The notes below the pieces were generated by a model. The model was given only the letters and a program-made list of their open reading frames with translations, ran no database searches and was not told where the DNA came from. The position numbers and the translations under genes were made by a program. DNA of 39,305 bases, from the IMG/VR virus record IMGVR_UViG_2706794689_000009, one strand, 5' to 3'. Source of the DNA: a virus. Taxonomy: Duplodnaviria; Heunggongvirae; Uroviricota; Caudoviricetes. Shown here in pieces: positions 9,496-36,760 of the stretch. Every line of letters begins with the position of its first letter. Position 1 is the first letter of the stretch.

Positions 9496-10018
9496 ATGAA
9501 TCGCGCTTCCCTGATTACCTTAATACATGTCGCAAAACGCGATCTACAGCTTGACCATGATACCTATACATCCGCGCTGCTGGCAGCCACCGGCAAATCC
9601 AGTTGCCGTGATATGTCACCCGGTGAGTTATCCCGCGTGCTGGATGTTTTCAAAAAACGCGGTTTTAAAGTGCGTCAGANNNNNNNNNNNNNNNNNNNNN
9701 NNNNNNNNNNNNNNNNNNNNNNNNNNNNNNNNNNNNNNNNNNNNNNNNNNNNNNNNNNNNNNNNNNNNNNNNNNNNNNNNNNNNNNNNNNNNNNNNNNNN
9801 NNNNNNNNNNNNNNNNNNNNNNNNNNNNNNNNNNNNNNNNNNNNNNNNNNNNNNNNNNNNNNNNNNNNNNNNNNNNNNNNNNNNNNNNNNNNNNNNNNNN
9901 NNNNNNNNNNNNNNNNNNNNNNNNNNNNNNNNTGCTGGCAGCCCTGGATATGTCGGAACGTGCAGTGATGAGTTATGAGCGTGTTTGCAGGCTGTATGAA
10001 AAATCATTCCCCCGTTAA
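9496..10018 (+). CDS. gemA: GemA-like early regulatory protein, interrupted by N-mask 9680-9932
   Basis: N-terminus MNRASLITLIHVAKRDLQLDHDTYTSALL...LSRVLDVFKKRGF fits the Mu gp16/GemA family. A C-terminal piece after the mask ends at 10018. Frame continuity across the mask cannot be verified. Confidence 0.55.
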
Positions 10019-10088: not shown

Positions 10089-10337
10089 ATGGCTGAAACA
10101 CAGATGAGCATGTTTGGTGACAGCGAACAGCTGCACGCGCTGATTGACCGTCTGGATGATATTCCTGATGATGAGCTGAAAAAGAACTGGCCCGGCACGC
10201 TGCGGGACCTGGTTGATGTGATCAGTGCTGAACTGCACCGTCAGGGGATTGAACCTGCTCAGGCGGGAATGCTTGCCCGTAAGGTTGCAGCCGCACAGGC
10301 CGGGTACATGGGCGGGCGTGGTTATTATCTCCCGGTC
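10089..10337 (+). CDS. mor: Mor-like middle operon regulator (3' end inside N-mask)
   Basis: MAETQMSMFGDSEQLHALIDRLDDIPDDELKKNWPGTLRDLVDVISAELHRQGIEPAQAGMLARKVAAAQAGYMGGRGYYLP parallels the Mu Mor N-terminal and dimerisation region. The C-terminal HTH would fall in the masked bases. Confidence 0.7.
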
Positions 10338-10597
10338 NNNNNNNNNNNNNNNNNNNNNNNNNNNNNNNNNNNNNNNNNNNNNNNNNNNNNNNNNNNNNNN
10401 NNNNNNNNNNNNNNNNNNNNNNNNNNNNNNNNNNNNNNNNNNNNNNNNNNNNNNNNNNNNNNNNNNNNNNNNNNNNNNNNNNNNNNNNNNNNNNNNNNNN
10501 NNNNNNNNNNNNNNNNNNNNNNNNNNNNNNNNNNNNNNNNNNNNNNNNNNNNNNNNNNNNNNNNNNNNNNNNNNNNNNNNNNNNNNNNNNNNNNNNN

Positions 10598-11094
10598 CAA
10601 AACTCCCCGCACCCCTGCGTAAAAAGCTGATTGCCCTTGTTCTGGCCGGAGCCGGGACGTTCACCATTGCCACGCACTACACCGGCTACTGGGAAGGGAA
10701 AGAAAACACCACGTACATTGATCCCACCGGCACCCCCACCATCTGTTACGGCCATACCGGCCCGGATGTGAAACCGGGGATGACAAAAACTGATGAAGAG
10801 TGTCTGGAGCTGCTGGAAAAGGACATGAAATGGGCCTTTGCGGCTATCGATCGTCATGTTCAGGTGCCGCTTACCCGTGGTCAGACGGTGGCGCTGGCCT
10901 CCTGGATTTTCTGGGCCGGTGAAACGAACTTTCGCAACTCCACGCTCCTGCGCCTTATCAATGCCGGGCAGATGCCCGCGTCCTGTAAGCAGTATATCCG
11001 CTGGATTTATTCAAAGGGGGTAAAACTCCCCGGTCTTGAGGCCCGCCGTTCGGCGGATGAATGGTTATGTCGTTACGATTTGCCGAAAGTCTGA
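10598..11094 (+). CDS. lys: Endolysin, phage lysozyme (GH24-like) with N-terminal signal-anchor (SAR type); start inside N-mask
   Basis: Visible translation KLPAPLRKKLIALVLAGAGTFTIATHYTGYWEGKENTTYIDPTGTPTICYGHTGPDV...VPLTRGQTVALASWIF co-linear with Mu endolysin. Gly/Ala-rich weakly hydrophobic N-terminal helix. Confidence 0.85.
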
Positions 11095-15079: not shown

Positions 15080-16668
15080 TGGGACGCATCATTGATACTG
15101 ACGGAAAACCTTTCTCCTTTGACCCGGAGATGCAGAGTGCCGCGCTGGATATTCCGCAGATTGCCAGCCGTTATATTGAACATCCGGCTTCGGGTATCAC
15201 CCCGAACCGGGCGGCGCAGTGCCTTCGCGGGGCTGAACGTGGCGATCTGATTGCCCAGTCCGATCTGGCCGCTGATATTGAAGAAAAGGACACCCACCTT
15301 TTTGCGGAGCTGGGCAAGCGACGTCTTGCCATTCAGGGGGTGCCATGGAGTATTGAGCCGCCACCGAACGCCAGCGCGAATGAGAAAAAGGACGCGGAAA
15401 TGCTCGACGAATATCTGCATTCCGCAGACTGGTTTGATGCCATGCTGTTTGACGCCACGGATGCCATCCTGAAGGGCTATTCCTGCATGGAAATTGAGCA
15501 CGGGATGCTCGGTAAAATGCACATCATCCGCGCCATCCGCTGGCGTGACAGCGGGCATTTCTGCCTTAACCCGGATGATTTGAGCGAACTGCGGCTGCGT
15601 GACGGCAGCCATGCCGGGGTGGCGTTTCAGCCCTTTGGCTGGATAGTGCATCAGTCGCGTTCACGCACCGGCTACGGTGGTGCGACGGGGCTTGTCAGAA
15701 CGCTTATCTGGCCGTTCATTTTCAAAAACTATTCCGTGCGCGATCTGGCGGAATTTCTGGAGGTGTACGGCCTGCCAATGAAGGTCGGGAAATACCCGTC
15801 CGGGGCAACACCGGAGCAGAAAAGTGCCCTGATGCGGGCGGTGATGGATATCGGGCGACGTACAGGCGGGATCATCCCGGCCGGGATGTCGCTGGAGTTT
15901 CAGGCGGCAGCGAACGGTCAGGCCGATCCGTTTGAAACCATGATTTCGTGGGGTGAGCGTTCCATCTCCAAAGCAATACTCGGCGGCACGCTGACCACAG
16001 AAGCCGGAGACAAAGGCGCGCGCTCGCTGGGTGAGGTGCATAACGAGGTGCGCCGGGAAATCAGGGATTCTGATTTACGCCAGCTGGCTGCAACCCTGAA
16101 CCGCGATCTGGTGTATCCGCTGTATGCCCTGAACACCGCCCACGCCATTGATATCCGTCGCCTGCCGCGTATCTGTTTCCAGACCAAAGAACCGGGGGAT
16201 ATCACCAAAATAGCCAGTGCGGTGATGCAACTCAGTGCGGGGATGGATATTCCTGATCCCTGGGTACGGGATCAGACCGGTATTCCACAGCCCACGCCCG
16301 GTGAAGCCATATTCCGTGTCCGTCAGAGCAGTAATGAACCGGCCATGCCTGACAGGGAAACGCTACCGGAAAAACAGGAAAAGACAGAACAGACGGCGCT
16401 TTCAGCCCGACTGCCGGAAGCGAAAAACACGCCGCGTGATGAACTGGACGACATGGGGGACGCGGTGCCTGCCCGCCGCTTACAGGAGGCCATCGATCCG
16501 GTGCTGGAGCCGGTCATTGATGTCATCAGAACGCGGGGGCTGGCGGAGGCACTGGCAGACCTGCCTGCCCTTTACCGTGAAATGGATGATTCCCGCCTGA
16601 TGACGCTGCTCAGTGATGCCATGTTTGCTGCGGAAATGAAGGGGATGCTGGATGGCTCAGGGGATTGA
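15079..16668 (+). CDS. Portal protein (Mu gp29-like)
   Basis: 529-aa ORF (GTG start) following the terminase. Size and position match the Mu portal. Confidence 0.8.
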   Translation: MGRIIDTDGKPFSFDPEMQSAALDIPQIASRYIEHPASGITPNRAAQCLRGAERGDLIAQSDLAADIEEKDTHLFAELGKRRLAIQGVPWSIEPPPNASANEKKDAEMLDEYLHSADWFDAMLFDATDAILKGYSCMEIEHGMLGKMHIIRAIRWRDSGHFCLNPDDLSELRLRDGSHAGVAFQPFGWIVHQSRSRTGYGGATGLVRTLIWPFIFKNYSVRDLAEFLEVYGLPMKVGKYPSGATPEQKSALMRAVMDIGRRTGGIIPAGMSLEFQAAANGQADPFETMISWGERSISKAILGGTLTTEAGDKGARSLGEVHNEVRREIRDSDLRQLAATLNRDLVYPLYALNTAHAIDIRRLPRICFQTKEPGDITKIASAVMQLSAGMDIPDPWVRDQTGIPQPTPGEAIFRVRQSSNEPAMPDRETLPEKQEKTEQTALSARLPEAKNTPRDELDDMGDAVPARRLQEAIDPVLEPVIDVIRTRGLAEALADLPALYREMDDSRLMTLLSDAMFAAEMKGMLDGSGD

Positions 16669-17983
16669 TTTAGGTTATGCCGCCACGCTTCCCTCAAAAG
16701 AGACGGTGGCATACTTCCGCGCCAAAGGGGCGCATATCAGCTGGAACTGGTTCGAAACAGACGCGGATGTTCATGCCCGCTCATTCACGGCAGCAAAAAC
16801 GGCACGGCTGGATGTGGTAACCACATTACAGGCCGAAGTGCAGCGGGCCATTGATGAGGGGATTTCACAGAAAGAATTTATCCGCACACTGACGCCACGC
16901 CTGCAAAAGCTGGGATGGTGGGGAAAGCAGATTGTGGTGGACAGCGACGGTAACGCGGAAGAAGTGCAGCAGGGCAGTCCCCGTCGTCTGGCGCTGATTT
17001 ACAACGTGAACACCCGTGTGGCTTACAATGCCGGGCGTTACACGCAGATGATGAACAACACGGACACGCATCCGTTCTGGCAGTATGTGGCGGTCATGGA
17101 CAGCCGTACCCGCCCGTCGCATTCCGCCCTTAACGGTCTGGTATTCCGCTATGACGATCCGTTCTGGAAAACACACTACCCGCCCAATGGCTGGAACTGC
17201 CGCTGCCGTGTGCGGCCATTGTCTCAGGCCCGTCTGGATGCAATGGGGTTATCCGTTTCATCCGGTGAGGATCATCTCTCCACCCGCAATGTTGAGGCTG
17301 GCGTGGATAAACAGACCGGAGAAGTCAGAGAAATGCCGGTGACCACATATTCAGATGGCGCCAGAACCATGACACCGGATGTGGGCTGGTCATATAACCC
17401 CGGCTCGGCAGCGTTCGGCACAGACCAGGCGCTGATCCGCAAACTGATCGAGGTGAAAAGCCCGGCGTTACGGGAAATGGTGGTTCAGGAGATGAACAAC
17501 AGCCCGGAGCGGCAGCTGGCGTTCCGCATCTGGGCAAAAAACATCATGCAGACCCGGCGAGGTGGTAACGATATCCGCACGCTGGGCTTTATGACTGAAA
17601 GCATTGCGCAGGCAGTGGAAAGCCGGACGGGAACGCCACCGGCCCGCCTGCTGGCGATGAGCGGTAAAAATGTGCTCCATGCGGACAGTGTGAAACATCA
17701 GAATGACGGCATCGCTCTGACGCCGGAGGACTTCGGGCGCTTACCGGCAATGCTGGCAAGGCCAAAAGCGGTACTGTGGGACAAACGGCACAACAATCTG
17801 ATGTATATCGTGGAAAATCAGGATGGCAGTGTGCAGATTGCCGTTAATGCACCGTACAGTCTGAAACGTCAGCCCGACAAACTGGATGTGATTGTGAATG
17901 CTTACCGGGTTATCAATATGGATAAGCTGAAATCGGATATCCGGGGCGGAATGCTTGAGGTGCTGGAAGGACAAATTGATTAA
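16652..17983 (+). CDS. Head morphogenesis protein (Mu F-like)
   Basis: 443 aa with the conserved core PFWQYVAVMDSRTRPSHSALNGLVFRYDDPFW...NCRCRV. Confidence 0.85.
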   Translation: MAQGIDLGYAATLPSKETVAYFRAKGAHISWNWFETDADVHARSFTAAKTARLDVVTTLQAEVQRAIDEGISQKEFIRTLTPRLQKLGWWGKQIVVDSDGNAEEVQQGSPRRLALIYNVNTRVAYNAGRYTQMMNNTDTHPFWQYVAVMDSRTRPSHSALNGLVFRYDDPFWKTHYPPNGWNCRCRVRPLSQARLDAMGLSVSSGEDHLSTRNVEAGVDKQTGEVREMPVTTYSDGARTMTPDVGWSYNPGSAAFGTDQALIRKLIEVKSPALREMVVQEMNNSPERQLAFRIWAKNIMQTRRGGNDIRTLGFMTESIAQAVESRTGTPPARLLAMSGKNVLHADSVKHQNDGIALTPEDFGRLPAMLARPKAVLWDKRHNNLMYIVENQDGSVQIAVNAPYSLKRQPDKLDVIVNAYRVINMDKLKSDIRGGMLEVLEGQID

Positions 17984-17984
17984 C

Positions 17985-18064
17985 GGTCAGTGGCGGGGGT
18001 CGAACCCGCATACATGATCCACCCGGAGGCAGGCACCGACTTTACCAGTTAAGCGTACACTGAC
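17985..18064 (-). other. tRNA-like element: perfect 7-bp acceptor stem and canonical T-arm; D and anticodon arms do not fold canonically by eye
   Basis: Minus-strand read GTCAGTG-TA-...-GCGGG-TTCGACC-CCCGC-CACTGAC-C: a 7-bp acceptor pairing, U8-A9, and a 5-bp T-stem with TTCGA T-loop. The internal 48 nt gave no clean D or anticodon stem on manual folding. Confidence 0.3.
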
Positions 18065-18104
18065 CGCCTGTTTATTTTATATTCATCCTTTATGCGGAGG
18101 CAAT

Positions 18105-18578
18105 ATGTCATCCATTGATGCAGCTGTCGTTGTTGACGTTACGCGTCTCCAGCGAGTGTTTGCCCGGCTTCAGTTTGTGGGCGGCGGAAAAGACCTGGCC
18201 CGCAGTGTGGCGGCGAGTCTTCTGTCATCGTCAGAAATGGCGTTTGAGCAGGAAAAAGAGCCGGATGGTGAACGCTGGCATGACTGGTCAGATCCTTACC
18301 GTGAGTGGCGTACCCGTAAGGGATACACGCCCGGCAAAATCCTGACGCTGAACGGCGATCTGGCCCGCCGCCTGACCACGGATTATGGCGATACCTGGGC
18401 GCTGATTGGATCAAATGAACCTTATGCAGCCATTCATCAGTGGGGTGGCCTGCCTGGTATGCCACCGGGACCGGCGGCCATTGGCGCACGTCCGTATATG
18501 GGCTTTGATCAGGTGGCAGAACAGGAGATCATGGACGAAATCAGAAAACGCTTTAAAAAGGCCACAGAAACGCCGTAA
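18105..18578 (+). CDS. Virion morphogenesis protein (Mu G-like)
   Basis: 157 aa; position after F. Conserved-looking C-terminal region AIHQWGGLPGMPPGP. Confidence 0.75.
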   Translation: MSSIDAAVVVDVTRLQRVFARLQFVGGGKDLARSVAASLLSSSEMAFEQEKEPDGERWHDWSDPYREWRTRKGYTPGKILTLNGDLARRLTTDYGDTWALIGSNEPYAAIHQWGGLPGMPPGPAAIGARPYMGFDQVAEQEIMDEIRKRFKKATETP

Positions 18579-18755
18579 TGGTTTAAGGTATGCAAACGTA
18601 TTACCTTACCCCCTTCAGGCGCGTGTCGTGATTTTCTAACCTGTATTTAACGGGCTTTAAAATCTGCGTGAAGCGCCTTTCTCATTCCCCCCCTGTCAGC
18701 ACTTTCTGAAGTCCCGCAAAACCAGCCCCAAAAATACCCGGCTTATGCTGCCGGT

Positions 18756-24387: not shown

Positions 24388-24771
24388 ATGAGCACACGTA
24401 AGAAAAAAACGGCGGTTTCTGACGAGGCCGTGATGGAGGCTATCCGGGATGCACTTGAAGACGGCGTCACCTTCCGCGAACTGACGGCAAAAGACAGCAT
24501 TGATGCGGAGAGCGAGGCCGAGCGTCTTATGGAAACCCGAAACGGTCCGGTTCTTGTGGCCTCACCGGCACTGCGCGGCATTGCGCTGCTGCGCCGTCAG
24601 ATTGCCGCTGTCGGCCAGATTGAGGGGCCATTGTCTCCGCGTCAGATAGGACAGCTCAGCGAGCGCGATCTCTCCCGACTGATGGCGGCAGTAAGCCTGC
24701 TTGATTCCGCGATGGCCGGAAAGCTGGTCGCTGAACGGGGGCGACCAGATGCAGTGCCGGGATCAGATTGA
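24388..24771 (+). CDS. Tail assembly chaperone-like protein
   Basis: 127 aa between tube and tape measure, the usual chaperone position. An overlapping ORF 24701-24895 in another frame could be a frameshift extension; no slippery site identified. Confidence 0.55.
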   Translation: MSTRKKKTAVSDEAVMEAIRDALEDGVTFRELTAKDSIDAESEAERLMETRNGPVLVASPALRGIALLRRQIAAVGQIEGPLSPRQIGQLSERDLSRLMAAVSLLDSAMAGKLVAERGRPDAVPGSD

Positions 24772-24898
24772 AGAAGCCGCAATTGTGCTGGGGATGGTGA
24801 CAAAAAGCGGCCCGGAGTGGGCGCTTAACCTCCCCTTATCGCAGCTTTACCGGCACTGCCGACAGACCGAAAAAATTCTCAGAACGAAGCAGTAACCC

Positions 24899-26956
24899 AT
24901 GGCAAAAAACCTGAAAGCCTCCCTGATTGTCGATTTACTCGGCAATATTTCTGCCAAATCCCGCCAGTGGTCACAGGAGCTGGGGGCATTCTCCCGTTCC
25001 GGCAGGACGGGGCTGGGTGGTCTTGGAAATGCAGCACGTCGTGCCGGTCAGGAGACAGAACTTGTCGGCTCCCGTATGCAGCGAACGCTTGCCGGTGTTC
25101 GTGGCAGTATCCGCACGGTGACGTCAGATTTTGACCGCCTTCAGGGCAGCATTACCGGCACCATCGGGCGGATAAGCAACCTTTACGGGATGCTGGCGGG
25201 AGGGGCTGCGGTCTACGGGTTTAATAAAGCCTTTATCCGCCCGGCCGCAGAGATGGAGAACTATATTCTGCGTCTCAACGCCATTAATCATGGCGATACG
25301 GCAAAAACGGAAGCAGTGAAAGCCTGGGCGGTACAGAACGCCAAAGACACCACCTGGGGGCTGGCGGGGGTTATGCAGGAATACGCCTCCAGTCGCGGGT
25401 TCGGTATGAGTGACAGGGAAGCCCGTCGCTTTATTACCATGCTTCAGGATCAGGGCGGCTATCACGGCTGGTCACTGTCAGATGCACAGGGTGCGTCCCT
25501 GCAACTCAAACAGATGTTTGCCCGCCAGAGTATCCAGGCAGCGGACGCCAATATTCTGACCGGATACGGGATTAACGTTTACCAGTTGCTGGCCGATAAG
25601 CTGGGTGTAAACCAGAAGATCATCCGTGAGAAAGGCGAGAAAGGAAAACTGGGACCGGACAGCATTCGCCTGTTATTTCAGGTGATGGCCGAACAGGCAA
25701 AAGGTGCCCAGAAAAACGCCATGAATTCCTGGACGGGAATGACGTCCATGATGGGCGATGTCTGGGACGGATTTGCCCGCGAGGTGATGGCAAAGGGACC
25801 GTTTGACAGCCTGAAAAAGAGCCTGAAAGGCTTTCTGGATTATGCTGATGCGGCACAGAAAAGCGGCTTACAGGATAAGCTGGCCACACAGACGGCCTCA
25901 GCCCTGAATCAGGGATTTGAGTATGCCAGAGACGCTGCGACCGGCTTTTACCGGGTCATTCAGAAAGTCAGGGAAACGCTTCAGGCACTGCGCGACGCCG
26001 GTTATGGCGATGCGCTGGATCGCATTGGTCAGGGTGCGCAGACCGCCGCAAAGTACCTGATGTATATGTATCTCGCCTCCCGTGCGCTGAAGGTGCTCAG
26101 GTTTGCGGGGACGGGGGCATTACGTCTCGGCGCAACCCCCTTACGCTATGGCATGGCGATGACCTCCGTGCTGACGTCGCCCTTCCGCAAACCGCAGACC
26201 ACTGTACCGGGAACGCAGCCCGGACGCGCTGGCCGGTTCCTGAATTTCCTTACCGGGGTAAATCCGGCTGCCGTTCAGCCCGTGCTGGTCACCAATTGGC
26301 CTGCGGGTGGCCTGGCCTCAGGTGGCGGGGATGTGGTGGTCAGCGGTGACGGCAAAACCGTGCGCGGCCGTAAAAAACGCGGCCCCGGACGTGGACGGGG
26401 TGTCACGACCGTCGTGACTGCCGGTGAGCAACTGGCGGAGAGTGCCGGTAAACAGGGCTTCTTCGGTCGTATGATGAGCCGTGCCGGTGGTCTGCTAACG
26501 GCGGCCGGAAACCGCATGGGGCTGGGGCGTTTTGCCGGGCTGTTCCGTGGTGCCGGTCGGCTGGGTGGTGGTGCCCTGTGGGCCGGTGCCATGGCGGCTC
26601 CTGTACTGCTGGACAGCAGCGCCAGTGCAGCCGATAAAGCCGGTGCCGTGGGTTCCCTTGCCGGAAGTATCGCCGGTGGCGCGCTGGGGGCGGCTGCCGG
26701 TCCGGTCGGGGTTGCCATTGGTTCCACGGTGGGCAGCTATCTCGGTGATTATCTGGGGGGCTGGCTGACGCAGGCCTGGCAGAAACTGCGTGGCGGCAGT
26801 GACGAAAACGGCGGACAGGCCACCGCGAAAACCGCCGCACGGGTGGAGCTTGTTGCCCCTGAAGGCTGGCGGGCGCGCAGTATTGATGTGGATGATACCG
26901 CACAGCATGGCCTGGATGTGAACGTCTGGAACGGAGGGAACTATGGCCTCTACTGA
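24899..26956 (+). CDS. Tail tape measure protein
   Basis: 685 aa with helical N-terminal half and Gly/Ala-rich C-terminal region. Located after the chaperone. Confidence 0.85.
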   Translation: MAKNLKASLIVDLLGNISAKSRQWSQELGAFSRSGRTGLGGLGNAARRAGQETELVGSRMQRTLAGVRGSIRTVTSDFDRLQGSITGTIGRISNLYGMLAGGAAVYGFNKAFIRPAAEMENYILRLNAINHGDTAKTEAVKAWAVQNAKDTTWGLAGVMQEYASSRGFGMSDREARRFITMLQDQGGYHGWSLSDAQGASLQLKQMFARQSIQAADANILTGYGINVYQLLADKLGVNQKIIREKGEKGKLGPDSIRLLFQVMAEQAKGAQKNAMNSWTGMTSMMGDVWDGFAREVMAKGPFDSLKKSLKGFLDYADAAQKSGLQDKLATQTASALNQGFEYARDAATGFYRVIQKVRETLQALRDAGYGDALDRIGQGAQTAAKYLMYMYLASRALKVLRFAGTGALRLGATPLRYGMAMTSVLTSPFRKPQTTVPGTQPGRAGRFLNFLTGVNPAAVQPVLVTNWPAGGLASGGGDVVVSGDGKTVRGRKKRGPGRGRGVTTVVTAGEQLAESAGKQGFFGRMMSRAGGLLTAAGNRMGLGRFAGLFRGAGRLGGGALWAGAMAAPVLLDSSASAADKAGAVGSLAGSIAGGALGAAAGPVGVAIGSTVGSYLGDYLGGWLTQAWQKLRGGSDENGGQATAKTAARVELVAPEGWRARSIDVDDTAQHGLDVNVWNGGNYGLY

Positions 26957-32076: not shown

Positions 32077-32957
32077 TGTTTCATGTTGATAATAATTCCG
32101 GCGTGGCGAATATGCCTGCGCTGGCACCGGCGCAGAGTAATACCACCACCTGGTTTACCGAAGGTGACGGACAAAAAGGTATCAGCTGGATTGGTCAGGA
32201 CTGGCTGAATATTCTCCAGGCCGAACTGCTGAATATTCTGGCTGAAGCCAGTATTCAGCCGGATAAGGCGCAGTTAAACCAGCTTACGCTGTCCATTAAA
32301 GCCATTATCGCTGCGAATGCCTTTTCCCGGAAAAATAACCTGAAAGAAATTGCTGATGCCGGTGCGGAGGCCCAGCGTCTGGCCCGTGGTTATCTTGGTC
32401 TGGGGACGCTTGCCACAAAAAACAGTCTTGGTCCCGCTGACGTTAATGCCCTGGCGAAGGATCAGAATCTCGCCGACCTGGAGAATAAGGGAACCGCCCG
32501 TAATAATCTGGATGTTTACAGCAAAAGCGAAGGTGATAACCGTTACCTGCGCAGGGAGCAGAACGGCGCAGACATTCCGGATAAAGGGGCTTTTATCGAT
32601 AACGTCGGTTTACGGGAAACGGTAAACAGGGCGGCGAATGCCCTGCCATCGGACGGCACCGCCGTTGCCGCGAACAGGCTGGCAAATGCCCACACAATTA
32701 ATGGTGTTCCCTTTGACGGGACGCAGGATATCACTATCTCATCAGGAACAGTAACCGCCATAAGACTGGGGTCGGTGACCGCACATATGCCCGGAACATG
32801 GGAAAGCTGGGATCTGAATCTGGGGGGCGGCAATGTTCTTACCGGAATTAAAGTACAGGATGTCGGTAAGAATACGGCAGATAACGTCGGCGGCGTGTAT
32901 TACCGGCCGTTGCAGTATCTGTTAAATGGAGCATGGGTGACGGCTGCAAGTATATAA
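32076..32957 (+). CDS. Tail fibre protein S: constant part up to about 32698, then current-orientation variable C-terminus
   Basis: 293 aa. The crossover motif [12 protein letters not shown] at residues 208-218 coincides with a 30-bp inverted repeat. Confidence 0.75.
32699..32728 (+). repeat. gix-like inversion crossover site, left copy
   Basis: TAATGGTGTTCCCTTTGACGGGACGCAGGA; its reverse complement occurs at 33811-33840 with one mismatch. Confidence 0.65.
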
Positions 32958-34705: not shown

Positions 34706-36760
34706 ATGTCAGACTCCAAGTGGAAAATGCTCTCCGCCATGCCCGGAGAGTTTTCAGTCAAGGTTGCCGGTGGCACGGTGGCATTTATTGAAAGCCCTTT
34801 CCGCCCTTCGGGTAATAAAGGGGGGATCACCTTCGCAGACTGCGTGATCCGCTTCAGCACGAAAGAGCCATTATGGGTAATGCCGGTATCCGGTAATCCC
34901 AGTGCAGAAATCACCAGTTCAGGCGTGACTGGCATCATTCCAATCACATCTGACGTGGCCGGAACGCTCACGCCCTCCGACTGGAATGCACCGGATAACG
35001 CCGGGCCTTCCGGTAGCACGAATGGCAGCAGTTCAGAGCCGGAATATTACTTTGTTGTCATTCTCGCGGGTCAGTCAAATGGCATGGCCTACGGCGAGGG
35101 GCTGCCGTTACCGGATTCGTTTGACCGCCCGGACCCACGCATTAAGCAACTGGCACGCCGCAGTACGGTAACGCCCAACGGTACGTCGTGTACATACAAC
35201 GACATCATTCCGGCAGACCACTGCCTGCATGATGTTCAGGATATGAGCGGGATAAACCACCCGAAAGCTGATCTGGCAAAAGGCCAGTACGGGACTGTCG
35301 GTCAGGGGTTGCATATTGCCAAAAAACTGCTTCCCTATATCCCACAGAATGCCGGGATACTTCTGGTGCCCTGTTGTCGTGGCGGGTCAGCATTCACCAC
35401 TGGAGCCGACGGCTCATTCAGTGAGGCCAGCGGTGCTTCCGCTGATTCTTCACGCTGGGGGGCCGGTAAACCTCTGTATCAGGACCTGGTAAGCCGCACC
35501 AAAGTCGCGCTGGCGAAAAACCCGAAAAACAAACTTCTGGCTGTGGTCTGGATGCAGGGAGAGGCAGACCTTGCCTCAGGAAGCCAGCAGCATAATAGTT
35601 TATTCACGGCCATGGTTCAGCAGTTCAGAACTGACCTGGCTCCGCTTGCTGCGCAGTGCGTGAGTGGAAATGCCACCACGGTGCCGTGGATTTGCGGTGA
35701 TACCACGTATTACTGGAAAAACGCTGGCACCGATAAATATGAGGCAGTATACGGTGGCTACAAAGGCAAGGAAGCACAGAAAATTTTCTTTGTACCGTTC
35801 CTGACGGATGAGAATGGACAGAGCACGCCAACGAATGCTCCGGCGGAAGACCCGGATATTGTGGCTGTCGGGTATTACGGTGCAGCATCCCGAACCCAGG
35901 GCAGTTTTGTTTCGACACAGCGTGACAGCCATTTCAGCTCATGGGCACGCAGGGGCGTCATTTCAGACCGTCTGGCCTCAGCTATTATGCTCCATGCAGG
36001 GCGCACGGCTGAACTGATGCGTGGGCAGACCGTGACACCACCGGATGAGAAGCCGTCACCTGATACACCATCAAAACCGTCCACGCCACCCGCAGACACC
36101 ACGACGATGAGTACGCTATTTGCTTACCGGGCATCTGAGTCTGAAGGACGGTTGACACCACAGGGTTGGGCTGCCGGAGGTGGCAAGGCTCAAATCGTGG
36201 ATGATGCCGGAGCCAGCGGGGGTAAGGCAATGAAACTGACCAAGGAAACAGGAAGAGCCCCCTGGTACCTTGAGCATGATGCTGGTAATGGTGCGGACCT
36301 GCTGGGTAAAGGTGGTCTTGTCAGTTGTCGTTTTAAACTCGATGGCGCGCTTACGGCTAATCAGTACGCACTGGCGCTGTACTGGCCGGTTTCTGCCCTG
36401 CCGCAAGGGGTTACTCTGGAAGGAAATGCCGGTCATAACCTGCTGGCATCGTTCTACGTACAGAGCGATGCCACAGACCTTAACGTGATGTATCACAAAG
36501 GAAACACGGCGCAGAACACGAAGCTGGGGTCATTCGGCGCATTTAATAACGAATGGCATACGCTGGGCTTCCGTTTTGCCGGTAACAACAGTATTGAGGT
36601 GACGCCGGTCATTGATGGTAAGGACGGGACACCATTCATGCTGTCGCAGTCTCCGGTCGGCACGTTTACGGCAGACAAGTTGCGCGTGACCGATATCACT
36701 AAAAATGCGACTTACCCGGTACTGATTGACAGTATCGTGGTGGAAGTGAATAACGCGTAA
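34706..36760 (+). CDS. Putative SGNH/SASA-family esterase (sialate O-acetylesterase-like) with Pro/Thr/Ser linker and C-terminal beta-rich domain
   Basis: 684 aa. Motif VVILAGQSNGMAYGEG (GQSN block of the SASA/SGNH fold), linker PPDEKPSPDTPSKPSTPPADTTT, then a roughly 220-aa C-terminal domain. Not part of the Mu backbone. Confidence 0.55.
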   Translation: MSDSKWKMLSAMPGEFSVKVAGGTVAFIESPFRPSGNKGGITFADCVIRFSTKEPLWVMPVSGNPSAEITSSGVTGIIPITSDVAGTLTPSDWNAPDNAGPSGSTNGSSSEPEYYFVVILAGQSNGMAYGEGLPLPDSFDRPDPRIKQLARRSTVTPNGTSCTYNDIIPADHCLHDVQDMSGINHPKADLAKGQYGTVGQGLHIAKKLLPYIPQNAGILLVPCCRGGSAFTTGADGSFSEASGASADSSRWGAGKPLYQDLVSRTKVALAKNPKNKLLAVVWMQGEADLASGSQQHNSLFTAMVQQFRTDLAPLAAQCVSGNATTVPWICGDTTYYWKNAGTDKYEAVYGGYKGKEAQKIFFVPFLTDENGQSTPTNAPAEDPDIVAVGYYGAASRTQGSFVSTQRDSHFSSWARRGVISDRLASAIMLHAGRTAELMRGQTVTPPDEKPSPDTPSKPSTPPADTTTMSTLFAYRASESEGRLTPQGWAAGGGKAQIVDDAGASGGKAMKLTKETGRAPWYLEHDAGNGADLLGKGGLVSCRFKLDGALTANQYALALYWPVSALPQGVTLEGNAGHNLLASFYVQSDATDLNVMYHKGNTAQNTKLGSFGAFNNEWHTLGFRFAGNNSIEVTPVIDGKDGTPFMLSQSPVGTFTADKLRVTDITKNATYPVLIDSIVVEVNNA

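Follow-up and report, generated by a model that had tools for sequence, protein, structure and literature searches.

The F–G gap of a Mu-like prophage and the RNA encoded in it

The window, by which we mean the whole stretch of 39,305 nucleotides that was analysed (IMG/VR record IMGVR_UViG_2706794689_000009, Caudoviricetes), is a complete Mu-like prophage with transposase genes at its left end, a plus-strand late morphogenesis operon and Com/Mom-like genes at its right end. Within the late operon, genes F and G are separated by a gap of 121 nt, and a tRNA-like element lies in this gap on the minus strand, antisense to the operon. The complement of the F stop codon (17981-17983) stands directly 3' of its acceptor helix. 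The first-pass annotation had placed a tRNA-like element on the minus strand of this gap, and its coordinates were right; the sequence matches base for base an 80-nt feature that RefSeq calls 'tRNA-OTHER'. The features of the locus are as follows.

16652-17983, plus strand: gene F, head morphogenesis, Mu gp30-like; on the strand opposite to the tRNA-like element
17984-18066, minus strand: whole tRNA-shaped RNA, positions -2 to 74 (Rfam tRNA model, 31 bits; family model R1, 95.7 bits)
17985-18064, minus strand: 80-nt core annotated by RefSeq (PGAP) as 'tRNA-OTHER', with the identical sequence annotated in many E. coli genomes
18058-18066, minus strand: 5' strand of the 9-bp acceptor helix (C-2, G-1, G1-G7), from covariation and RNAalifold
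17984-17992, minus strand: 3' strand of the acceptor helix (C66-C72, C73, G74), pairing with 18058-18066; no CCA encoded
18037-18057, minus strand: U8-A9, an additional C and the D arm, matched to the corresponding arm of RF00005
18015-18036, minus strand: substitute for the anticodon arm, an interrupted helix, from folding and from being skipped by the tRNA model
17993-18014, minus strand: variable loop and T arm, from the sequence, the RF00005 alignment and two covarying T-stem pairs
18074-18103, minus strand: predicted sigma-70 promoter, from a consensus match and a conserved -10 element
18105-18578, plus strand: gene G, virion morphogenesis/neck; on the strand opposite to the tRNA-like element

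In phage Mu the F and G genes overlap by 4 nt, which agrees with the earlier remark that Mu has nothing comparable at this position. In one related locus without the element (L089), the F stop codon lies 9 nt ahead of the G start. Because the element is absent from both, the comparison shows that it is an insertion, probably a moron cassette, of approximately 109 bp at about 17984-18092.

Other parts of the prophage showed signs of mosaicism when compared with the near-identical FORC_069 prophage. Most of the window is 93-99% identical to it, and short stretches near 507-837, 9523-9679 and 32588-32731 are 82-89% identical. The identity falls to 78% at 24466-26091, which has the appearance of a patch recombined into the tail region. 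The Mor-like open reading frame (ORF) at 10089-10622 matches Mor of FORC_069 over its first 83 residues only, and 10337-10598 has no counterpart there, indicating a mosaic junction within this Mor-like regulator gene. The G-I intergenic region (18579-18755) occupies the position equivalent to the central strong gyrase site of Mu, for which the Mu record marks the gyrase cut at 17879/17880 in the G-I interval. Just past the invertase gene is an ORF of 684 amino acids (34706-36760; RefSeq annotation DUF6645), an accessory gene that could be a defence or conversion gene.

Read from 18064 to 17985 on the minus strand, the RNA is GUCAGUG-UA-C-GCUU-AACUGGUA-AAG-U-CG ... GCGGG-UUCGACC-CCCGC-CACUGAC-C. 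Positions 1 to 7 (G1-G7; 18064-18058) pair perfectly with positions 66 to 72 (C66-C72; 17992-17986). The perfect acceptor stem described in the first-pass annotation was thus correct, but its extent was not 7 bp: the helix continues to 9 bp through G-1:C73 (18065:17985) and C-2:G74 (18066:17984), and both of these pairs covary in relatives. U8-A9 at 18057-18056 and the T arm GCGGG-UUCGACC-CCCGC at 18009-17993 were found as described. A D arm had been reported as not evident; one is nevertheless present, carrying G18 and G19, and is aligned by the Rfam tRNA model. Its stem is formed by (C)GCUU and AAG(U)CG with one bulge, and its loop, AACUGGUA, carries A14, A15, G18, G19 and A21. The variable loop, UGUAU, is 5 nt long and ends in U48, which would pair with A15. 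The universal tertiary nucleotides of tRNA are all present, namely U8, A14, A15-U48, G18, G19, A21, G53, U54, U55, C56, R57, A58 and C61.

The anticodon arm had been judged non-canonical, and rightly so. Its place is taken by a region of about 22 nt, compared with the 17-nt anticodon stem-loop of a tRNA, and the RF00005 alignment passes over 24 nt here where 18 would be expected. In the minimum-energy fold, an upper 5-bp stem closed by a C(UCCG)G tetraloop forms a hairpin at 18019-18032. A 7-nt anticodon loop with U33 and an anticodon is absent. Since the anticodon stem-loop is swapped for a longer interrupted helix with a tetraloop, the RNA is unable to read codons, and since this defining feature fails, we do not class the element as a tRNA. 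We also rejected the idea that the hairpin corresponds to the long variable arm found in class II tRNAs, since it is followed by a linker of 5 nt that ends in U48.

The remainder of the molecule is close to a canonical tRNA (RF00005), with which it has in common seven of the nine acceptor pairs, U8, the D-arm G18/G19, a 5-nt variable loop, a 5-bp T stem and a UUCRA loop. Besides the missing 5-bp anticodon stem and 7-nt loop, it differs in an extra nucleotide after A9, in a paired discriminator and in encoding no CCA. The discriminator is paired because the acceptor helix extends through -1:73 and -2:74, and in all Mu-like copies position 73 has -1 as its partner. The paired -1:73 and -2:74 would hinder normal RNase P and CCA maturation, such that the phage copies may not be processed in the manner of a tRNA.

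Covariation, coding strand and the predicted promoter

ARAGORN, which had been suggested as a check, called no tRNA in the window, nor did it do so in 13 related loci. A scan of the whole window at the Rfam gathering thresholds gave no match either, presumably because the speed filters drop a borderline match. The covariance-model check, in contrast, was positive when run locally: a permissive Rfam scan of 251 nt returned RF00005 at 31.0 bits (E = 6.7e-5), above the cut-off of 29, with the acceptor, D and T arms aligned. Simple arithmetic scales this E value to roughly 0.01 for the whole window. When relatives were scanned over 45 kb (E <= 0.5), RF00005 scored 34.2 bits in L097 and 27.4 bits in L022, and other members fell below the reporting limit. 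No other Rfam family, C4 and other antisense families included, matched the element. A comparison of single-sequence folding energy with shuffled controls, also suggested beforehand, turned out negative: the fold of the element gave z = -0.81, and neither strand folded better than its shuffles.

Genome annotation treats the family unevenly. The O157 Sakai-type copy (for example L035 from O157 FDAARGOS_293; also in O103 genomes) differs solely by G57 to A57 and is unannotated in RefSeq, such that the element is under-reported in its best-known carriers. PGAP labels the satellite copies of L002 and L037 tRNA-Tyr because the arm loop contains GUA. Literature searches returned no published description of the element. 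Its existence is known already through the 'tRNA-OTHER' annotation; its anatomy, family structure and contexts are apparently unrecorded.

Conservation of the fold was examined in an alignment of 20 distinct sequences (from about 25 distinct relatives) covering 19 stem pairs. Stem positions formed standard pairs in 98.9% of cases and nine of the 19 pairs were altered on both sides, a covariation score that none of 500 shuffles reached. When the 3' partners were slid by one to three columns, pairing dropped to 31-58%. RNAalifold independently recovered the 9-bp acceptor helix and the T arm. Six of the nine acceptor pairs have changed on both sides; -1:73 occurs as GC, UA, GU or AU, and -2:74 is AU or CG in all Mu-like copies. 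In the D stem, pair 13:22 covaries from UA to CG and pair 10:25 changes from GC to UG, and two T-stem pairs covary (CG to UA, GC to AU). A14, A15, G18, G19 and A21 in the D loop, together with U54, U55, C56, A58 and C61, are invariant among 20-21 distinct relatives.

The element is also much better conserved than its surroundings. In L008 and L018 it is 96-98% identical to the copy in the window, whereas F and G are 66-70% identical in DNA (about 68%) and the promoter spacer is 57-66% identical. The differences among copies with the same arm as the window (type A) fall at sites that tolerate change (16, 17, R57, 59 and the N of the UNCG loop) or turn one pair into G-U. Since the element keeps 96-98% identity next to flanking genes at about 68%, it is evidently under strong purifying selection.

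These observations bear on the possibility that the element is the relic of a tRNA gene, decaying and now functionless, that is merely retained in an intergenic region. The non-canonical anticodon arm, the failure of ARAGORN, Rfam scores of 27-34 bits that lie at the cut-off and the unannotated Sakai-type copy would all fit such a relic. However, a relic should not be conserved far above its flanks, show compensatory changes and keep a -10 hexamer, nor would it be expected in two unrelated kinds of mobile elements, in one of them as arrays. Even the Sakai-type change of G57 to A57 retains the purine that tRNAs require at this position. We therefore consider decay highly unlikely, and the degenerate tRNA offered among the first-pass suggestions is contradicted by the identity values, the covariation and the conserved promoter element, while an unusual tRNA or a tRNA-derived RNA, also named there, is supported.

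The selected molecule is the minus-strand RNA, because 12 alignment cells hold G-U pairs, which on the plus strand would turn into A-C mismatches, and because the family covariance model R1 scores 95.7 bits on the minus strand versus 7.2 bits on the plus strand. A plus-strand or DNA-level element, such as a structured spacer, terminator, processing site or packaging signal of the late operon, would account for the location within a late transcription unit and for the T-rich run that follows the helix on the plus strand of the window. This T-run, however, is not conserved in L008, L015, L016 and L022, and no terminator was detected. The G-U pairs, the strand scores and satellite copies that sit outside head operons, without F or G, speak against any such element, including the processing or packaging signal proposed in the first-pass annotation, and we regard it as very improbable. 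Collectively, the comparative evidence is decisive in placing the case beyond chance, and it shows a conserved and structured, tRNA-shaped but non-decoding RNA on the minus strand.

The RNA appears to have a promoter of its own. The only promoter-like site in 17500-18600 directly precedes the element, on the minus strand, and consists of a -35 TTGCCT (18103-18098), an 18-nt spacer and a -10 TAAAAT (18079-18074). TAAAAT is unchanged in 12 of 13 distinct diverged upstream regions, the exception being L090 which has no such hexamer, while the spacer varies freely. It is found 17-18 nt from TTGC(C/T)N, 8-10 nt from +1 of the core and 6-8 nt ahead of the 9-bp helix, which puts the predicted start 0-3 nt ahead of the base of the helix. 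The -35 overlaps the complement of the Shine-Dalgarno sequence of G, such that its conservation is ambiguous and may stem partly from G. A search for a terminator near the element found none.

Distribution of the family and diversity of the arm

A BLAST search of 5426 complete E. coli genomes found the region in 225 (about 4%), many of them Shiga-toxin-producing strains, and some copies are only about 73% identical. Pattern scans added 27 viral and 20 metagenomic contigs, and a search seeded with protein G, followed by the family covariance model, yielded the further diverged copies L085, L086 and L090. One genome from each of 185,579 species was scanned with two patterns, without a match, indicating that the family is either rare outside the sampled lineages or so diverged that exact patterns miss it. 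Looser patterns run on viral contigs returned Mu-like carriers again and nothing else. Two of the carriers, L090 and L088, are not closely matched by any of the 5426 E. coli genomes, and the family thus reaches other hosts. No related genuine tRNA turned up when the element was compared by BLAST with phage and plasmid collections; besides the same prophage, it matched only 25 nt in the T arm of a Klebsiella phage tRNA-Met.

The family was seen in only two contexts. The first is the F-G gap in one clade of Mu-like prophages, where the element has this antisense position in every one of about 50 loci. The second is the far end of satellite islands of about 8 kb that are integrated at tRNA-Ile, where two to three copies occur in tandem. 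The satellites encode an integrase, a regulator, Ash and Icd-like proteins, a replication helicase/primase, SSB, PerC and Mor. Their copies are co-directional with mor and lie downstream of PerC-Mor, after an iteron block and one promoter-like site. No promoter was found between the copies, no gene lies on the opposite strand and neither F nor G is nearby. As there is no promoter between copies, individual satellite RNAs would need tRNA-type processing for their release.

The islands themselves have features of interest. The one at L034 1250-9600 (E. coli JNEC-KY179), like those of L037, L048, L051, L054 and L056, spans about 8 kb at tRNA-Ile, and its far border is marked by a copy of the tRNA 3' end. 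The Mor homologue of the islands is about 41-44% identical to Mor of Mu-like prophages, and the islands are thus possibly satellites of Mu-like helpers. About seven direct repeats of the GTGAAA type (L034 1790-1885), the iterons that directly precede the array of tRNA-like copies, probably constitute a replication origin. In L002, the host DNA beside the satellite holds sub-threshold matches to naRNA4, a REP-type repeat, at 1874-2009 and 2748-2828; these are ordinary E. coli repeats.

The scaffold of the RNA is nearly invariant across the family, and the arm comes in at least eight discrete, unrelated types of 27-38 nt, every one of which is a hairpin. The arms fold into loops of 4-14 nt on stems of 4-8 bp, with a short lower stem and a bulge. 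The loops seen were UNCG and other tetraloops, UUUUUU, 5-nt, 10-nt and 14-nt loops and a GUA palindrome, and none had 7 nt. Arms are conserved within a type across diverged phages: relatives with the arm type of the window have UCCG or UUCG as the loop and an identical stem, despite flanks of only about 68% identity. Since the commonest loops are inert UNCG tetraloops and loops vary within a type, any specificity of the arm must sit in its stem, bulge or length. Satellite arrays combine different arm types. Type B is common to phages and satellites, types G and H of the satellites have no close match in any Mu-like prophage sampled, and the type-G arm was not found in viral contigs. Searches for the arms in other viral contexts found none. 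Complementary RNA targets of each arm type, sought in phage and satellite, occurred at chance level only. A 19-mer of the type-A arm in L100 proved to be a chance match, a single other occurrence inside a GC-rich ORF.

Could any member be a working tRNA that decodes through an unusual anticodon loop? The tRNA-Tyr label that PGAP gives to the L002 and L037 copies is in favor of this idea. However, the arm so labelled is a perfect palindrome, CAGCCUGUACAGGCUG, with a loop of 4 or 6 nt and not of 7 nt with U33; the loops of other members have 4, 5, 6, 10 or 14 nt, and CCA is not encoded. We give this reading next to no weight. Two tRNA identities were checked as well. The covariation of G-1:C73, seen as GC, GU, AU and UA, led us to reject histidine identity, and alanine identity lacks its G3:U70, the window having C3:G70.

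Both contexts bear on the idea that the RNA is a cis-antisense regulator. Its pairing partner would then be the late F-G mRNA, whether from its own phage type or from a superinfecting phage of that type, with the arm providing type specificity, and the pairing would trigger cleavage or alter the expression of F or G. The immunity RNAs c4 of P1 and P7 and CI of the satellite P4, which are processed by RNase P, set a precedent. Consistent with this, every Mu-like carrier has the gene antisense between F and G and over the F stop codon, the arms behave as type-specific alleles, and the satellite type-B arm resembles the type-B arm of phages. On the other hand, the tertiary nucleotides of a tRNA are needless for pairing and yet invariant, and the ribosome-binding site of G is not covered by the RNA. 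The satellite copies have no gene on the opposite strand and no complementary site within the satellites, and arm types G and H are unmatched in the sampled Mu-like prophages. The element further shows neither an Rfam match to C4 or another antisense family nor complementarity above chance in phage and satellite. We think regulation by antisense pairing in cis unlikely.

Like the element, c4 and CI are small phage or satellite RNAs that are matured by tRNA enzymes and serve as type-specific immunity elements, but their loops are complementary to their own operon and they are not full cloverleaf mimics.

Proposed role of the RNA

We propose that the element is a self-transcribed, non-decoding tRNA mimic that was inserted as a moron, in which the tRNA body provides processing and stability and the arm provides specificity, and which acts in trans. 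We assign this reading a probability of roughly 0.4 and offer it as tentative. Transcription would run leftward, antisense to the late operon, from the putative sigma-70 promoter and would start within a few nucleotides of the helix. The RNA would fold into the L-shape of a tRNA; its secondary structure is established by covariation, and the three-dimensional shape would follow from the conserved tertiary nucleotides. As its sequence shows, it is non-decoding, with its anticodon stem-loop replaced. The body would be a scaffold that allows excision by the tRNA machinery of the cell and confers stability. For the satellite arrays, with two to three copies per promoter, RNase P and 3' trimming would be required. 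The arm would be the specificity module, of which discrete types are maintained within type, and the RNA would act in trans, most likely by binding a protein. Action in trans through a modular arm is suggested by the satellites because they carry the same scaffold in tandem copies with different arms and without a gene on the opposite strand. The likely setting is conflict of the phage with its host or with a satellite, or the regulation of these conflicts.

An alternative is that the tRNA body is itself the active part, a mimic competing for a factor that recognises the acceptor helix, the T arm or the elbow. Candidates for such a factor are a tRNA-targeting toxin or defence nuclease, nucleotidyltransferase, RNase P and the SmpB/tmRNA pathway, and the diversity of the arm would be incidental or reflect escape from recognition. 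The pattern of conservation favors this alternative: it is in the scaffold and not in the arm that conservation is highest, the T arm and D loop being invariant, and the commonest arms end in inert tetraloops. The T arm (17993-18009) is identical to that of E. coli ssrA at 15 of 17 positions in the window and at 16 of 17 in the Sakai-type copy. The tRNA function of SsrA was reportedly linked to Mu repression by Ranquet and co-workers in 2001, which we count in its favor. Phage tRNAs that counter tRNA-cleaving defences are also known (PMC13096335).

Against an active body, the likeness to tmRNA is limited to the T arm and G3:U70 is missing. There is no 7-nt loop to serve as a decoy for anticodon nucleases, and a decoy of the CCA end is hard to reconcile with the lack of an encoded CCA and a paired discriminator. 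An active body would also leave unexplained why satellites carry two to three different arms and why arms are conserved within type across diverged phages. We regard it as rather unlikely. Derivation of the element from tmRNA was examined separately and rejected, since there is no likeness beyond the T arm. As mimics, the two have in common the absence of an anticodon and an almost identical T arm; the element differs from the tRNA-like domain of tmRNA in its true, covarying D stem, in lacking G3:U70, and in having neither an mRNA-like domain nor pseudoknots; the sequence between its D and T arms amounts to a hairpin of 22-38 nt.

Our preferred reading of a scaffold with a specificity arm has parallels among known RNAs. 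Non-decoding tRNA mimics include tRNA-Other of Bacillus cereus, the bacterial Y-RNA-like YrlA, the TMER vtRNAs of the gammaherpesvirus MHV68 and mascRNA. These are likewise small stable RNAs that use the tRNA shape for processing or recognition, and some are viral and occur in arrays. They have no sequence relation to the element, however, and YrlA has its termini in the arm opposite the acceptor, and tRNA-Other retains an anticodon loop. To our knowledge, no mimic of this group forms a family with a swappable arm or is shared between phages and satellites. As a genetic unit, the element resembles phage morons, which are small units with their own promoter, inserted between late genes that adjoin each other in relatives and oriented against the operon. 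It differs from them in that its payload is an RNA and not a protein and in that no terminator was found.

The same design exists in a man-made form. In the engineered 'tRNA scaffold' of Ponchon and Dardel, which is used for recombinant RNA expression in E. coli, a hairpin payload stands in for the anticodon stem-loop, and the tRNA body is there for processing and for resistance to nucleases. That scaffold is artificial, whereas the prophage RNA is natural and conserved, and the latter would be the natural counterpart of the former.

A broader and more speculative suggestion, to which we attach only a small chance, is that Mu-like phages and the small satellites that occur alongside them possess a common modular class of RNA-only effectors with interchangeable hairpins, which the satellites deploy as multi-allele arrays and in which each type would engage or neutralise a different protein when mobile elements are in conflict with one another or with the host. 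If this is true, the hairpin types would serve immunity, counter-immunity or signalling between helper and satellite. Phage tRNAs are now viewed as weapons against the tRNA-cutting defences of the host. A tRNA look-alike that does not decode and diversifies in the very arm with which a tRNA reads codons would point to the use of the tRNA shape outside translation.
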